The notes under the pieces: generated by a model
The model's database searches: none
Seen by the model: only the letters and a program-made list of their open reading frames with translations
What the model was told of the DNA's origin: nothing
IMG/VR virus record: IMGVR_UViG_2695420427_000009
From: a virus
Taxonomy: Duplodnaviria; Heunggongvirae; Uroviricota; Caudoviricetes
DNA: 19,124 nucleotides
Strand: one strand, 5' to 3'
Made by a program: the position numbers and the translations under genes
Shown: positions 3,727 to 17,929 of the stretch, piece by piece
Numbering within the stretch: position 1 is the first letter of the stretch
Layout: each line of letters opens with the position of its first letter

Positions 3727-4539
3727 TTATAAGAAAGCCTCACGCGAACGGAACACCCACTCTAGCTGTACTGGATAAATTTCTCCCGTTTTAATATTTA
3801 TTAGGCGCGCGGCTAATAACTCACCCATAAAAACCTGAGTTTTATGGCTCATATCTGACGGGTTAAAAATAGTAGGTGATGTTATATCAATATGATTACT
3901 GCTTAACCCATTTATCTTTGCTAAATATTCAATTCTAAGGTCTTTTACATTAACATCTTTTGGTATTTGTCCTTTTATATCAATATCTGCCCATATTGTT
4001 TCAGGGTTCCCTTCATTTATTTGTGTACTACCAAAGATAATTTCGGCACCTAAAGTATTTAACACTTCTACATCAGCAGATATTCCAAAAGCATTAGCAC
4101 CAACATAGCTTCCATGCTTTGTTATTTCAGAGGAATCGACATGAAAACCATACCATCCAGACATATCTCGAGATGTTATCACGCTATCACTACCGCTATT
4201 CTCAACAAAATCACGGTTAAGATATGTTCCTGAGTATGTGATACTTCTAGGGATAGACAAACCTTGAGATGTTAAAACGTTGTTGTATGGCGCGTATGTT
4301 AATGAGTGAACGACATATCCACGCCATGAACCATCATCTATCTTTGATGCAATAATTCTATTAAATTCCTTACCTGTGAGTATTTTGCTGCTAAAATCAC
4401 CAACAGAGTTGATAGGTACTCTTTTTTCTTTTTCGAATTTATACTCAACGTCCGTTGATGCCTTATTATCATATTGATAAGTGCATCCAGATAATAACAA
4501 GATAGAGAGTAATAAAGCTGTTGTTTTTTTGTTACGCAT
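3727..4539 (-). CDS. Lipoprotein of unknown function (270 aa), AT-rich moron
   Basis: N-terminus MRNKKTTALLLSILLLSGC is a signal peptide with lipobox LSGC; mature part is Ser/Thr/Gly/Tyr-rich; the gene is visibly more AT-rich than its flanks. Confidence 0.8.
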   Translation of the reverse strand: MRNKKTTALLLSILLLSGCTYQYDNKASTDVEYKFEKEKRVPINSVGDFSSKILTGKEFNRIIASKIDDGSWRGYVVHSLTYAPYNNVLTSQGLSIPRSITYSGTYLNRDFVENSGSDSVITSRDMSGWYGFHVDSSEITKHGSYVGANAFGISADVEVLNTLGAEIIFGSTQINEGNPETIWADIDIKGQIPKDVNVKDLRIEYLAKINGLSSNHIDITSPTIFNPSDMSHKTQVFMGELLAARLINIKTGEIYPVQLEWVFRSREAFL

Positions 4540-4628: not shown

Positions 4629-5024
4629 TCAATCAACTTTTTTAGCATCAGCCATACGCTTCAACCAGTAATCAACAATCGGCTGCTCATCCACAGAATG
4701 TTTACCAGGTATAACTCGCCAGCTATCTTGCGAAAATCTGCCGTACTTACGCGGGAATAGGCCTTTCTTTATCTCCCGCCATGTACTAGGAAAACCATCC
4801 ACAAAAGTACCAATTAACAGGAGAGGGACAAAAATCAGAGCTACAAACCATCGTGCAAGAAAGTGTTCAACAACAACATTTTCACCGTTGTAGTAATACG
4901 CATACGCATCCAATATGCGAATTTTCCTTACCTTAAAAATAGCCTTATGTTGAGAACGACTTAACTTGATACGAATGTATCCCTTATCCAAAGGGGATTC
5001 GTATTTGTATGATTGAACAGCCAT
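4629..5024 (-). CDS. Hypothetical membrane protein (131 aa from ATG at 5024; ORF track extends to a GTG at 5036)
   Basis: One predicted TM helix (WFVALIFVPLLLIGTFV); GGGG RBS-like motif upstream of the ATG; follows the 108-aa ORF on the same strand with a 2-nt gap. Confidence 0.6.
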   Translation of the reverse strand: MAVQSYKYESPLDKGYIRIKLSRSQHKAIFKVRKIRILDAYAYYYNGENVVVEHFLARWFVALIFVPLLLIGTFVDGFPSTWREIKKGLFPRKYGRFSQDSWRVIPGKHSVDEQPIVDYWLKRMADAKKVD

Positions 5025-5357: not shown

Positions 5358-5549
5358 TTACTCCCCGTTCACCGAAAAATCACGATAGAAACGTTTCCAC
5401 ATACGATAAGTCTGCGCGAGTTGTTCACCACGAAACATCGCCTTCCTGGCCTTCATGTTTTCCTTGTGAGACTTTCGATCTATGAACCAAAACCATTGCT
5501 GGAACACACAAAGCAAGAGACACAAAGATAATATCCACTGATTACCCAT
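5358..5549 (-). CDS. Putative small single-TM protein (63 aa), possibly coupled to repA
   Basis: In-frame ATG 2 nt after the repA stop codon gives MGNQWILSLCLLLCVFQQWFWFIDRKSHKEN..., a hydrophobic helix plus basic tail; the longer 102-aa form in the ORF track would overlap repA by about 125 nt. Confidence 0.35.
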   Translation of the reverse strand: MGNQWILSLCLLLCVFQQWFWFIDRKSHKENMKARKAMFRGEQLAQTYRMWKRFYRDFSVNGE

Positions 5550-8500
5550 AGAAAGCGCCCTGCTCTTCGTAGCTGCATGGGCTATTCCCGGTAATGTATT
5601 CACGTAACCGCCGCAGTTCATTGCTGGATAAGTGATCCATGAACTCTGTGAGGTACAGAGATGCAAACGTCATAGCTATGCTAGCTGATGACCATGATGA
5701 CATAGTGGCCAGCTCCTCACCGGAAAGCGCACTCATCGCCCAGGACTCAGGTACAACCACTGGCAACACAGCCAAAGCCTCAGAAATTACTGAATGAGGG
5801 GCGTTTTGAACCTGCTCGTTTGTGGATCGCGTTTTATCATCCATATATATATTGAGATCCAAATCGCGATCCATTTCGATGGCGGTCTTCTCGGCTTTAC
5901 GCGTTTTCAGGGTTAGGCCATCTTTCTGACGCTGAGCAAGAATATCCAGCATAAATGCCGCTGATTCAGGCTCAACAAAACGCAAGGTTGGACGCTTATC
6001 GCCGTCTCTGCCGCGACGTTTACCTGTTTTAAGGCCAAGAGAGTCGCAAATGTTTTTAAACAACGCTTCCGGCACTTTAGGCTTCCCTTTTGGCGTCATA
6101 AAACCACCAATGTGCAGAACGTTATTCAACAGGTCACGGCGTTCGGCTGTCATGAGGTTATCTCGAGCAAATTTGAGACGCTCCTGAGTCGCCTCGCCGG
6201 TCATAGTCTCAGGGTTGATACCGCAGTCGATAAAGTACTGCCGGAGAGTTGCTGATTTAAGCGCATAGAAACCGCGCGCCCCGACTTCAACAGTAGGAGT
6301 AGCTTTTACCTTGTGATCGATTATTCCAGGGAATTTAGTTTTAAAGACATCATCAGCCTGCTCGCGAGTCATCGCGGTCACTACAAAATATTGCCACTGT
6401 CCCGCCTGACGGTATGCGTAGGTAAAATTGATGGCTGCTTCTTCCCGGTCGTAACGACGAGCTGTTACCTCATCTAAAAGCATTGTTTCATAGCGGCGAA
6501 CTTTGTCTCGAGCACCATCGAAATAGAATTTCAGCGTGCCTTCTTCAACCGGTAGTTTCAGTTCGTTTTCAATATCCCAGCGGACAAGTTTTGCCTGTTC
6601 TTCAAGCGTCAGCGCGCGTTTTTTTAGCAGTTCTTCACGCTCTGATTCTTGTGGAGTTTCTGTATTGAGATGCAGATCCAGTGTCTGTTCCCACACAATA
6701 TCCCGCGCTTCTTTACGCAGCTCTTTACCGATATCATTCGCAGCATAATCGGTGGCCAGCGGCGATACCTTATAACCGTCGCTGTGCATGATGCAGATCA
6801 TGTTGCTGGCGTAGTCGTTACGCGCAGTCGCTTCAATAGCGGCTGCTTTAATTTTCATCCTGGTAAAGTCGGTATTGGCCACCCCCATTGATATACGGTC
6901 GCCATCGAAAACGACATCCGTCAGTTCACCGTTCATACCTGCGGTAGCAAGCAATGCCTGGGCGAATGCTCGTTCTATTTTTTGCGGGTCAGTTTCACGT
7001 TTTGCACGAGCTTTATCAAAGCCGATAATAAATTCTTTTGCTGTACGGTCGCGGCGTAGCATTTGCACTGCGTCGCTGGGTACAACTTCACCACAGAACA
7101 TGCCGAAATGACGGTCAAAATGTTTTTGCTCAATCGACACGCCGGATGAAATAGACGGGCTATAAATCAGGCCGTCGTATTTTTTGACCATCTTTTTCGG
7201 TTGATTGGTAAATGCTTCAACTTCTGGCTCTGGTTTGTTTTTCTGGTTTACACACAGAAATTTCTTACCAGGAAAATGCATTCTCAGGGTGGCGGTCACA
7301 TCTTCTGCAAAGGTGGAGCTGTCGGTGGCCAACATGATTTTTTCGCCATTCGATACAGCTTTCACCACCTCGGTCATAATGCGATCTTTTTCTGTATAAA
7401 AAACCCGGATTGGCTCACCTGTTTCGCGGTTGCGAACATCAACAGGTAATTCAATTACGTGGATCTGCAGCCATGCCGGTAAACCTAGTTCTTCACGGCG
7501 TTTCATAGCCAGTTCAGCCAGGTCAACCAGCAGATCGTTCGCATCAGCATCCACCATTATTGGGTGTTGTTCCGTTCTGGCCAGCGCGTCAATTAACGTA
7601 TTGAATACAGCCACCGGGTTTTCCATAGCCCGACCGGAAAGAACGGCACGTAGCCCTTGCGTGGCCTCGTCAAAGCCAAAATAGTCGTGCTGGCGCATCA
7701 ATGGTTGCCAGCAGTTTTTAACAATCGAGTTTATGCAGATGGTCAGTTTACTGGCGTATGGAGCCATTTCCTGATAGCCAGGGTCCTGATAGTGCAGGAT
7801 ATCGGCTTTTACACCTTTTCCTTCTGTCATCATTTCCCACAGGCCACCAATAAGGGAAACACGGTGAGCAACAGAGATACCACGTTCTGAGCTATGCATT
7901 AAAGGTCGTAACAATCCAGTAGATTTGCCGGAACCCATACCAGCACGAACGATGACTATCCCCTGTAGTGATTGCACATACTTCAGGACGTCATCGGTCA
8001 TTACCGAAGTTTCAAAACGCTTATAGGTGATATGTTGAGGACGTTTATTGGGATCAGTTATTCGTTCGCTGAATGAGCGCGGAGCCTGGGCAATACGGCA
8101 CTTTTTATTCAGGCGACGGGCAATGTGGTCTTTTACCGTAGCGCGATAGATATTTTCCAGCCCAATTTCACGCAGGGCGATGCAGAACATGTTAAATAAG
8201 TCTGACGGACTGTTAGGAACCGGACAGGTTAGCATGCCAATATCCACTGCTCTCAGCAGCTCTTTGGCAAAAGTACGACGGTTATCCCGCTTAATTGTCT
8301 TCAGGCGGTTGAGCGTCAGAGATAGCAAATCAGTGCCAGTTTTCAGGCGGTTTGCAGTTGCAAACAGTTGACGTGCTGTTTCACGAAGTCCACGTAGTTT
8401 GTGCAGGTCGTTGAAGTCACTGCACTCCATTTGCGGATCGTCTTCAAAAGTTGGATAGACGCAGCGGACATCGTTGAATTTCGATAAGATTTCATAGCCA

Positions 8501-9537
8501 GTCCGCAGGCCGGTATTCCCTTTTCCTTCTGTAGCTGATTTCCGGTCATTATCCAGTGCGCAGGTGATTTTTGCCGCCGGGTACATGTTTACCAGTTGTT
8601 CCACAACATGAACCATGTTGTTAGCGGATACAGCGACAACCACAGCGTCAAAGCGTTTATCTTTTTTCGTGGCAAGCCAGATGGATGCACCAGTAGCAAA
8701 ACCTTCTGTAACAGCGATGTTTTGCGCCCCTTTCAGCTCACCGATAACAAAGCAGGCACCGACGAAATCGCCGCTGGTTACGGCGCTGGTCTGGTATTTT
8801 CCACCTTGTTTGTCGATTCGCTGCCAACCAACAATACGACCATCGTAACGACCGTCCAGGTGAGCCAGAGGGATAGCCATATACGTGGTTGGCCCCCTGC
8901 TCCATTTTGCGCTGTCGTGACTGGTCACGCGACGCACATCACACGAATTAAAAACGTCACGAATACCTTTTTTAATCGCATATGGCCATGAGCCGTCTTC
9001 TGCAGGAGCATGTTCCCAAGCACTGTGGAATGCCAGCCATCCCAGCAAACGTTCATGGTCCATTTGGTTGTTTTTCAGGTCATTAATTCGTTTTTGTTCT
9101 TCACGGCGACGACGTGCTTCGGCCTGACGTTCTATTCTTGCCCGTTCTTCTTCCGGTTGTGCGACCACGGTCGCATTATTCCGTTGTTGCTCACGGCGAT
9201 ATTCAGAAAACAGGAAGGAGAAACCGCTCCATGAGCCAGCATCGCTGCCTTTATGGACGAAGTTAATGAACGGGTAATCAATCCCTTTGCTGTGTTCCAG
9301 CCGGGAGTAAATTTCTACGCGTCCTTTGAGGCTCTTTTCGAGAGCTTCTGGGGATGTTTTATTGTATGAAGAGTAACGCTCAACACCCCCGCGAGGGTTG
9401 AGTTGGATGTTGTCGGAACAGGCAGACCAGTTGATACCAGCCATCTGTGCCAGCTCGGTTAGTTCATCCCGTGCTGCTTCAATTAGCGAGAACGGATCGC
9501 TGCCAAAGCGATCCGCATAGAAATCGTTTAATGTCAT
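5542..9537 (-). CDS. repA: Replication protein RepA, primase-helicase (1331 aa)
   Basis: Size matches N15 RepA (~1320 aa); N-terminal primase-like region with acidic motifs (TEGFATGASI, ALDNDRKS); central Walker A VRAGMGSGKST; located between the ant region and cB as in N15. Confidence 0.9.
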   Translation of the reverse strand: MTLNDFYADRFGSDPFSLIEAARDELTELAQMAGINWSACSDNIQLNPRGGVERYSSYNKTSPEALEKSLKGRVEIYSRLEHSKGIDYPFINFVHKGSDAGSWSGFSFLFSEYRREQQRNNATVVAQPEEERARIERQAEARRRREEQKRINDLKNNQMDHERLLGWLAFHSAWEHAPAEDGSWPYAIKKGIRDVFNSCDVRRVTSHDSAKWSRGPTTYMAIPLAHLDGRYDGRIVGWQRIDKQGGKYQTSAVTSGDFVGACFVIGELKGAQNIAVTEGFATGASIWLATKKDKRFDAVVVAVSANNMVHVVEQLVNMYPAAKITCALDNDRKSATEGKGNTGLRTGYEILSKFNDVRCVYPTFEDDPQMECSDFNDLHKLRGLRETARQLFATANRLKTGTDLLSLTLNRLKTIKRDNRRTFAKELLRAVDIGMLTCPVPNSPSDLFNMFCIALREIGLENIYRATVKDHIARRLNKKCRIAQAPRSFSERITDPNKRPQHITYKRFETSVMTDDVLKYVQSLQGIVIVRAGMGSGKSTGLLRPLMHSSERGISVAHRVSLIGGLWEMMTEGKGVKADILHYQDPGYQEMAPYASKLTICINSIVKNCWQPLMRQHDYFGFDEATQGLRAVLSGRAMENPVAVFNTLIDALARTEQHPIMVDADANDLLVDLAELAMKRREELGLPAWLQIHVIELPVDVRNRETGEPIRVFYTEKDRIMTEVVKAVSNGEKIMLATDSSTFAEDVTATLRMHFPGKKFLCVNQKNKPEPEVEAFTNQPKKMVKKYDGLIYSPSISSGVSIEQKHFDRHFGMFCGEVVPSDAVQMLRRDRTAKEFIIGFDKARAKRETDPQKIERAFAQALLATAGMNGELTDVVFDGDRISMGVANTDFTRMKIKAAAIEATARNDYASNMICIMHSDGYKVSPLATDYAANDIGKELRKEARDIVWEQTLDLHLNTETPQESEREELLKKRALTLEEQAKLVRWDIENELKLPVEEGTLKFYFDGARDKVRRYETMLLDEVTARRYDREEAAINFTYAYRQAGQWQYFVVTAMTREQADDVFKTKFPGIIDHKVKATPTVEVGARGFYALKSATLRQYFIDCGINPETMTGEATQERLKFARDNLMTAERRDLLNNVLHIGGFMTPKGKPKVPEALFKNICDSLGLKTGKRRGRDGDKRPTLRFVEPESAAFMLDILAQRQKDGLTLKTRKAEKTAIEMDRDLDLNIYMDDKTRSTNEQVQNAPHSVISEALAVLPVVVPESWAMSALSGEELATMSSWSSASIAMTFASLYLTEFMDHLSSNELRRLREYITGNSPCSYEEQGAFYG
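5824..5872. other. Origin-like structure inside the 3-prime part of repA: inverted repeat GGATCGCG / CGCGATCC flanking AT-rich CATATATATATT, with three GATC sites
   Basis: Seen directly in sequence; N15 ori is reported to lie within the 3-prime part of repA (established knowledge); exact correspondence not verifiable here. Confidence 0.3.
8916..8929. repeat. Palindrome CGTGAC-tg-GTCACG (copy 2 of palindrome family B), inside repA coding sequence
   Basis: Exact 12-mer GTGACTGGTCAC shared with 14851-14862 and, in opposite orientation, with 3650-3661. Confidence 0.6.
9158..9175. other. SopB-type centromere-like palindrome TGTGCGACC-ac-GGTCGCA (copy 1 of family A), inside repA coding sequence
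   Basis: Arms TGCGACC / GGTCGCA with 2-bp centre; 6 of 7 arm positions match the F-plasmid sopC core TGGGACC-AC-GGTCCCA as I recall it; same element at 11602 and 16589. Confidence 0.6.
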
Positions 9538-16803: not shown

Positions 16804-16817
16804 CGCGATGCGCATCG
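16804..16817. promoter_or_regulatory. Perfect 14-bp palindrome GCGATGCGCATCGC immediately upstream of the methyltransferase
   Basis: Seen directly; overlaps the alternative upstream ATG (16808) of the methyltransferase ORF. Confidence 0.4.
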
Positions 16818-16852
16818 CCGGGTTAGCTTACCCAGGCAAAAAAATAATAGCT

Positions 16853-17929
16853 ATGTTCAAAACCACTAATATTCATGGCGCACAACTCGTTTGCGCAGAT
16901 TCTCTGCAATTTATCAAAACCATCCCTGATAACTCGGTCAATTTGATTGCAACAGACCCACCATACTTCGGCGTAAAGGCTAACGCATGGGATAACCAGT
17001 GGGATAGCGATGCTGACTTTTTGGGGTGGATTGACGAATTTTTGGCAGAATTTTGGCGGATATTGGCCCCTAATGGCAGCCTGTATATGTTTACCGGCTC
17101 TCGCCTTGCGTCAAAAATTGAATTATTAACTCGCGACCGTTTCAATGTTCTGAACCATATCATTTGGGCTAAACCCAGTGGTATGTGGCGCGGTTGTCAT
17201 AAAGAAAGTTTAAGGGCTTATTTTCCTGCTACTGAAAGAATATTATTTGCAGAGCATTACGGCACGTCAGGTTATGCTAAAGGTCAGTCAGGTTATGCTT
17301 CAAAATGTGCAGATTTAAGAAAAAATATTTTTTCTCCACTAATTGATGCTTTTTCGCTGGCTCGCCGTCAGTTAGATATATCAGCCGCAGACATTAATTC
17401 AGCGACAGGAAAGCAGATGTGTTCACACTGGTTTTCTTATTCGCAGTGGCGGCTTCCATCATTAATTGATTTTAATAAACTATGCGAATTATTTCGCAGG
17501 AAGGCAGATTCACTCGGTGTCCCGTGTCCATATCCTTTTAATGTTGATTATTCAGAACATGAAAAGCGTTATAGCGATCTGAAATTGCATTATGAGGAAG
17601 AAAAGAAGCAGTATGATGATTTGAAGGCTCAGTATGAAAATTTACGCCGTCCATTTCATGTTACTGCTGATGTACCTTATACCGATGTATGGGAGTTTCC
17701 TCCTGTGCAATATTATCCTGGCAAGCACCCATGTGAAAAACCTGCAGCGATGATGGAACATATTATAAAGAGTAGTTCACGCCCCGGAGATATCGTTGCC
17801 GATTTCTTTATGGGATCAGGCTCAACTATTAAAGCTGCGCTGAAGTTAGGACGTCAGGCAATAGGTATTGAGATTGAGGGCGAACGTTATCTTCAGACAG
17901 TTGATGAAGTGAAAAAGTTATTTGAGTAA
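16853..17929 (+). CDS. Orphan DNA methyltransferase, beta-class (N6-adenine or N4-cytosine; motif IV DPPY before motif I FxGxG), 358 aa
   Basis: N-terminal DPPY and C-terminal FFMGSGST with an intervening target-recognition region; no restriction endonuclease partner visible; start could be the upstream ATG at 16808. Confidence 0.75.
   Translation: MFKTTNIHGAQLVCADSLQFIKTIPDNSVNLIATDPPYFGVKANAWDNQWDSDADFLGWIDEFLAEFWRILAPNGSLYMFTGSRLASKIELLTRDRFNVLNHIIWAKPSGMWRGCHKESLRAYFPATERILFAEHYGTSGYAKGQSGYASKCADLRKNIFSPLIDAFSLARRQLDISAADINSATGKQMCSHWFSYSQWRLPSLIDFNKLCELFRRKADSLGVPCPYPFNVDYSEHEKRYSDLKLHYEEEKKQYDDLKAQYENLRRPFHVTADVPYTDVWEFPPVQYYPGKHPCEKPAAMMEHIIKSSSRPGDIVADFFMGSGSTIKAALKLGRQAIGIEIEGERYLQTVDEVKKLFE

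Follow-up and report, generated by a model that had tools for sequence, protein, structure and literature searches.

In the telomere phage PY54, the minimal origin of replication (ori) is reportedly a 212-bp piece from the 3′ portion of repA, the gene for the replication initiator, as mapped by Ziegelin et al. in 2005, and the RepA proteins of differing lineages are said, from the same work, not to cross-react. The ori of phage N15 likewise lies within repA, with bidirectional replication beginning inside the gene (PMC4165912, PMC2847241), and N15 RepA has been reported to act in cis only (PMC3155836). A probable counterpart of these intragenic origins is present in a 19,124-nucleotide stretch of DNA from a Caudoviricetes virus (IMG/VR record IMGVR_UViG_2695420427_000009, the whole of which is referred to below as the window), where an inverted repeat with an A/T-only centre and clustered GATC sites occupies positions 5822–5874, near the 3′ end of repA. 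On sequence comparison, this element is considered to be the core of the ori from which an N15-like telomere phage replicates as a plasmid-prophage, with a probability of about 0.8. Elements of this kind are already known, and the most interesting detail is the strictly conserved 43-bp geometry of the GATC sites.

The repA gene of the window (5542–9537, minus strand, from the list of open reading frames (ORFs)) encodes a primase-helicase replication initiator of 1331 residues, which shares 75% amino acid identity with N15 gp37. The protein is matched by the NCBIfam family CyRepA1 at 261 bits (cut-off 200) and contains the Pfam signatures Toprim_3 and Herpes_ori_bp, corresponding to Toprim and helicase/origin-binding functions. 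Over repA the window is 99% identical to the Escherichia phage PhiR46_1, and its wider relatives include N15, phiKO2 and many linear phage-plasmids of Klebsiella and Escherichia. The element is thus found in the 3′ part of an N15-type (CyRepA1) repA gene, in a telN/immunity-region context. Its location, 330 nt before the repA stop codon, agrees with the initial annotation, which had placed it near the 3′ end of the gene, and resembles that of the N15 and PY54 origins, which are found in the same CyRepA1-type gene family about 280–330 nt before the stop.

The initial annotation described an origin-like inverted repeat at 5824–5872, and its two repeat units, GGATCGCG (5824–5831) and CGCGATCC (5865–5872), are present at those positions together with the A/T run CATATATATATT (5842–5853) and three GATC sites within about 50 bp, which start at 5825, 5856 and 5868 and span 47 bp. 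These coordinates capture the core of the element but not its full extent, as the outer ends of the arms are at 5822 and 5874 and conservation continues from approximately 5773 to 5898. An inverted-repeat tool identifies 13-nt arms (5823–5835 and 5861–5873) that are 92% complementary, whilst comparison with relatives gives arms of 21 nt in inverted orientation (5822–5842 and 5854–5874), the full symmetry of which is seen in the Citrobacter/Klebsiella-type relatives. Arm 1 (GTGGATCGCGTTTTATCATCC, 5822–5842, identified by the inverted-repeat call) contains the first outer GATC site (5825–5828) and a decayed fourth GATC, which reads CATC in the window (5838–5841). Arm 2 (GAGATCCAAATCGCGATCCAT, 5854–5874) contains two GATC sites 12 bp apart, namely the inner site (5856–5859), common to N15, phiKO2 and PY54, and the second outer site (5868–5871), 43 bp from the site at 5825. 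Each arm is a proposed RepA-binding half-site. Between them lies an 11-nt centre consisting only of A and T (ATATATATATT, 5843–5853), a proposed DNA-unwinding element; in both 12- and 20-nt windows, no other stretch of the ~4-kb repA gene forms a less stable duplex. The element codes for DRDLDLNIYMDDKTRS.

At the corresponding position of N15 gp37, protein alignment places the peptide DRDLDLNI, and the N15 DNA reads GGATCGCGATTTGGATCTAAATATAGATATA...CGATCC, with three GATC sites at offsets identical to those of the window and in the same repA codons (GGATCGCGATTTGGATCT.AATATA...CGATCC). PY54 shares the 43-bp GATC geometry, and its own four GATC sites surround ATATAGATATA. The window differs in the length of its arms, which are 8–13 nt and perfect or near-perfect (6 nt and perfect in N15), and in its centre, where it has ATATATATA instead of ATATAGATATA. 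By calculation, the N15 element falls at approximately 30138–30199 of AF064539 and the PY54 core at approximately 27860–27910 of AJ564013. In an old GenBank record of N15 repA (U63085.1), three 11-bp repeat_regions are annotated exactly at the element, comprising two direct copies (GATCCAAATCG and GATCCACTTCG), which correspond to arm 2, and one inverted copy; the depositors had therefore already singled this element out. This homology and the comparative evidence support the proposal in the initial annotation that the element corresponds to the ori inside N15 repA. The element is best read as an orthologue of a known kind, the N15-type telomere-phage intragenic ori.

The 3′ regions of repA were collected from phage records, PLSDB plasmids, GTDB genomes and IMG/VR; scanning genome contigs with a single protein query yielded two loci, and an alignment-based scan of IMG/VR was far more productive. 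Twelve full-length repA genes, with products 34–94% identical to the RepA of the window, came from E. coli, E. albertii, Citrobacter, Enterobacter, Pseudocitrobacter, Klebsiella phiKO2, N15, PY54, Salmonella, Rouxiella, an Orbaceae bacterium and Vibrio chagasii. In 11 of these 12 genes, the 60-bp stretch richest in GATC sites is located at the aligned position of the element, 279–330 nt before the stop, the exception being that of E. albertii, whose plasmid, like YDC107_1, has lost the inner GATC. Of 71 evaluable IMG/VR loci, among which there are 36 distinct core sequences, 70 give the same result. A pair of GATC sites exactly 43 bp apart, 230–420 nt before the stop and around a TATA-rich centre, is present in 87 of 93 related repA genes, with exceptions in the Vibrio/Orbaceae type (46+9) and in hapunavirus-like genes. 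Among 16 representatives with less than 80% mutual identity, the two outer GATC sites are invariant and the central TATA.ATA is nearly so, and the most AT-rich 30-mer of repA lies at the centre in 8 of 13 relatives scanned.

The outer distance is the fixed part of this arrangement: from the first to the last GATC it is always 43 bp in the enterobacterial types, with internal spacings that vary between 12+31, 12+18+13, 13+18+12, 6+6+31, 30+13, 13+30, 6+31+6 and 6+37 bp. The fourth site, lost in the window, is intact in the Citrobacter, Enterobacter, Klebsiella and PY54 types, where the spacings are consequently symmetric (12-18-13 or 13-18-12). Two inverted arms of approximately 21 nt, each with two GATC sites, surround an A/T-only centre in the Citrobacter/Klebsiella-type and Rouxiella-like genes, as exemplified by TGATCCAGATC...GATCTGGATCA; in its ancestral form, each arm contained two GATC sites, 12–13 bp apart. 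The GATC sites are the most conserved bases of the element, whilst the remaining arm bases vary from lineage to lineage; those between the GATC sites are lineage-specific and change together in both arms, the N15 type reading GATC.CGATTT.GATC and the PY54 type GATC.AACTTG..GATC.

Conservation at the DNA level extends to relatives in which the encoded peptide is unrelated, namely the PY54-like, Rouxiella-like, Orbaceae and Vibrio types. In PY54 and P840, whose RepA tails are about 41% identical to that of the window, an unrelated peptide (EPDLTCGSDIDIRSQVGS) occupies the site of the element, and codon alignment shows that GATC sites are kept at aligned positions around ATATAGATATA, although the codon phase of one of them has changed. 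Of the 15 GATC columns that the lineages have in common across the 4.3-kb alignment, five lie within 48 nt at the element. In 5426 complete E. coli genomes the segment occurs in 18, on plasmids only and always inside repA.

Synonymous change is suppressed around the element. When N15-like repA genes are compared at degenerate residues that they have in common, the fraction encoded by identical codons is 0.87–0.97 over 5773–5898, compared with 0.52–0.55 gene-wide, and three of the top five non-overlapping constraint windows are contiguous at 5773–5898, which is the probable extent of the origin region. Only two other peaks in repA are comparable: the first ~15 codons, and a perfect 16-bp palindrome resembling the sopC centromere (TGCGACCGTGGTCGCA, 9160–9175, minus strand, around residue 120), which is invariant in N15-like repA and at the counterpart of which phiKO2 is annotated with a putative plasmid partitioning site. 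The palindrome is therefore a sopC-type centromere inside repA, and the scan recovers this known cis-acting site together with the element. A second conserved stretch is located within the constrained block at 5786–5804, between the dyad and the stop codon (ATTACTGAATGAGGGGCGT, or GCCCC.CA.TCAGTAAT when the coding strand is read); it is conserved in N15-like genes only and may be part of the full origin.

Taken within the window, the element is not statistically unusual, and this weighs against its interpretation as an origin core, as do two further points: the equation of the element with the mapped N15 and PY54 origins rests on position, annotation and the reported location of those origins, and the concerted change of the arms fits a dyad protein site, a hairpin or a cruciform equally well. 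Markov simulations give an expectation of about 15 perfect 8-nt inverted repeats with loops of up to 40 nt per window, and three GATC sites within 47 bp have a probability of 0.14, given 42 randomly placed sites. GATC is under-represented in the window (42 against ~73 expected), and its densest cluster is the element itself, the next spanning 154 bp. The significance of the element comes from its conservation across lineages and not from window statistics. These figures could suggest that the element is a product of chance and coding constraint, in which an Asp codon followed by C yields GATC and the repeat falls by coincidence within a conserved peptide, and the DRDLDLNI peptide is indeed conserved between the window and N15. 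However, the PY54-, Rouxiella-, Orbaceae- and Vibrio-type peptides are unrelated and use other codon contexts and phases, and yet the sites, their spacing and the A/T centre are kept, which makes this explanation untenable; the excess of identical codons at the element and the concentration of shared GATC columns also count against it. Provided that the alignment of the distant lineages is correct, it is already refuted by the comparative data, and it is scarcely credible.

Of the rival explanations that accept a conserved cis-acting site, the least improbable, though still unlikely, is a RepA-binding control site involved in autoregulation, handcuffing, copy number control or loading and pausing, with the true origin elsewhere in or near repA. 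Dyad symmetry and lineage-specific arms do indicate a protein-binding site, and the 5′ end of repA is highly conserved (9492–9521, codons 6–15, is the most invariant 30-mer of the gene, with 27 of 30 positions invariant in N15-like genes) and contains, at 9494–9514, an inverted GGATCGC/GCGATCC pair that has no further counterpart in the window; its GATC sites, at 9495 and 9510, are separated by 15 bp. As a conserved feature this pair was rejected, and it is probably not a second RepA site, its first GATC being present in only three N15-like genes and its second following from a conserved SDP peptide. No other copy of the arm sequence is found in the window, and the A/T-only centre, the least stable duplex of the gene, is itself conserved, which is a hallmark of an unwinding element and not of an operator. 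Still less probable is a function in the repA transcript, where the element would form an RNA or single-strand hairpin with a role in processing, stability or translational pausing and the DNA features as by-products. The strand does fold better than its shuffles (z = −3.07) and the arms change in concert between lineages, but an RNA stem requires neither invariant GATC sites at a fixed 43 bp nor an invariant A/T-only loop of 11–18 nt, the arms pair imperfectly and with an indel in several lineages, and no Rfam family is found at the element, the one match being negligible (E = 0.65, 19.9 bits against a gathering score of 95). An equally improbable function is that of a promoter or regulatory switch that responds to Dam and drives, for instance, an antisense transcript or the small genes that follow repA. 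The GATC cluster does adjoin a TATA-like sequence, but no σ70-like promoter is detected on either strand between 5500 and 6200, nor a terminator at the element, and antisense ORFs, including one of 40 residues at 5794–5916 that was considered as the cause of the constraint and rejected, are broken by stop codons in N15, phiKO2, PY54 and others.

The interpretation that accommodates these observations best is therefore that of an origin core, and the anatomy of the element, together with the known biology of the N15 family, suggests that RepA binds and unwinds the DNA here. In the proposed mechanism, the primase-helicase RepA would bind the two 21-nt arms, with the lineage-specific inner arm bases conferring replicon specificity, and would melt the A/T centre at 5843–5853 and load itself in both directions. 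RepA would then prime synthesis before the host polymerase takes over, so that the linear plasmid is replicated in both directions. The GATC sites would be methylated by host Dam and may add a level of host control, either through hemimethylation and SeqA sequestration after firing or through methylation-assisted melting. GC skew over repA is monotonic and dominated by transcription, with no switch at the element.

oriC and the oriR of plasmid P1 are Dam/SeqA-controlled origins, and the element resembles them in that GATC sites are clustered in or next to an A/T-rich unwinding region, with pairs spaced approximately one helical turn apart. It differs from both in its architecture, which is a dyad as opposed to tandem 13-mers or 7-mers, and in its initiator, which is a phage primase-helicase and not DnaA or an iteron-binding Rep protein. 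It also lacks a DnaA box: with up to one mismatch to TTATCCACA, the nearest is located at 4984, and none is found in or near the element. An iteron-type origin would be expected to contain at least three tandem direct repeats of about 17–22 bp, whereas the element consists of a two-arm dyad only, and TGGATC, considered as an iteron word, is not enriched in the window (9 observed, 9.4 expected). The ori of P4 consists of short repeats, the type I iterons, that are recognised by the α primase-helicase. P4 α, like RepA, combines primase (Toprim), helicase and origin-binding functions in one polypeptide, but the origin of the window lies inside the coding sequence of its own initiator, and its repeats presumably differ from the type I iterons of P4.

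The GATC sites lie on one helical face by their spacing, with the outer pair 43 bp apart and the inner partners 6–13 bp away. The crystal structure of the SeqA dimer shows binding to tandem hemimethylated sites with 9 bp between them on the same helical face (PMC2691817), and the GATC pairs 12–13 bp apart match this tandem-site spacing. GATC sites are thus clustered above background at a spacing suited to SeqA, as in a Dam/SeqA-controlled origin, although the DnaA boxes that adjoin such origins are lacking. Control by host Dam and SeqA through these sites is put forward tentatively, as a possibility with somewhat less than even chances. No more probable is the further idea that the GATC geometry is a host-coupled licensing module and not a RepA recognition code, such that Dam/SeqA gates the origin of a linear phage-plasmid. 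Weighing against a role for Dam and SeqA, the analogous repeat of VP882, a phage of a Dam+ Vibrio, contains no GATC, and the GATC sites could belong to the recognition sequence of RepA. Pseudomonas and Halomonas relatives lack the GATC cluster, but so does VP882 with its Dam+ host. A full-text literature search returned no paper linking N15 with Dam or SeqA.

The initial annotation had also raised the possibility that a DNA methyltransferase encoded by the phage, if Dam-like, might methylate these sites. The enzyme (16808–17929, plus strand, 373 residues) is indeed a β-class N6/N4 methyltransferase (PF01555, N6_N4_Mtase), but not a Dam-like one, as Dam belongs to the α-class family PF02086. 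As a Dam homologue it was rejected, with all NCBIfam matches far below their curated cut-offs; its nearest solved relatives are M.RsrI, M.MboIIA and CcrM. Host Dam alone would suffice to methylate the GATC sites, making the phage enzyme unnecessary.

VP882 offers a more distant comparison. Its repA contains an inverted repeat (locus L023, 4433–4483) with 12-nt arms that are 92% complementary and 27 nt apart, located 187–237 nt before the stop and surrounding the most AT-rich 30-mer of a gene of 56% GC. Its arms, TGGGGACACTTC and GAAGTATCCCCA, differ from those of the window, as does its RepA C-terminal region, which is not alignable with the N15 type. This repeat is a candidate origin core of the hapunavirus-type telomere phages, and visual inspection reveals similar GGGACACTT...GTATCCC words in phiHAP-1 and a Pseudomonas corrugata plasmid, for which the repeat tool made no call.

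Elsewhere in the window, the protelomerase gene occupies 106–2001, and other genes encode a Bro-N protein, a CI-like repressor and Q, the latter two being located downstream. The variable region between repA and telN contains a 270-residue ORF (3727–4539, minus strand) with no Pfam match; in Klebsiella phage relatives the same region carries toxin/immunity cargo (PMC12042878).

Several of the collected records, IMG/VR contigs among them, contain two copies of repA in opposite orientations (the locus pairs L033/L034, L047/L071, L051/L055, L057/L059, L061/L074 and L086/L094), and PLSDB records with two such places, for example NZ_CP082016.1 (107,713 bp), also occur, often at about twice the unit length. 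These look like palindromic or dimeric assemblies of a hairpin-ended linear prophage, arising from telomere read-through or replicative dimers, and not like a real structure. One 52-kb record labelled Limoniibacter endophyticus (L013, NZ_BMZO01000013.1) carries a Klebsiella-type N15-like repA with an interrupted frame, a tail 81% identical and an identical four-GATC core; such an element is unexpected in this organism, and contamination or mislabelling seems likelier here than a true host.

For a widespread group of linear phage-plasmids, present in E. coli, Klebsiella, Salmonella, Yersinia and others, these comparisons together narrow the probable origin core to about 53 bp (5822–5874) within a block of approximately 125 bp. 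A pair of GATC sites 43 bp apart around TATA.ATA, about 300 nt before the repA stop, provides a simple diagnostic that can be used in annotation, in the engineering of N15-based linear vectors such as pJAZZ and in the design of incompatibility or curing tools. The element is also a clean example of a cis-acting DNA site that constrains coding sequence, as it dictates one Asp and one Ile within a linker that is otherwise free to vary. Through the conserved GATC geometry, a role for Dam and SeqA is directly testable; if the sites did form a licensing module, the N15 family would join oriC and P1 as a third class of replicon under Dam/SeqA control, one that is independent of DnaA and embedded in coding sequence.

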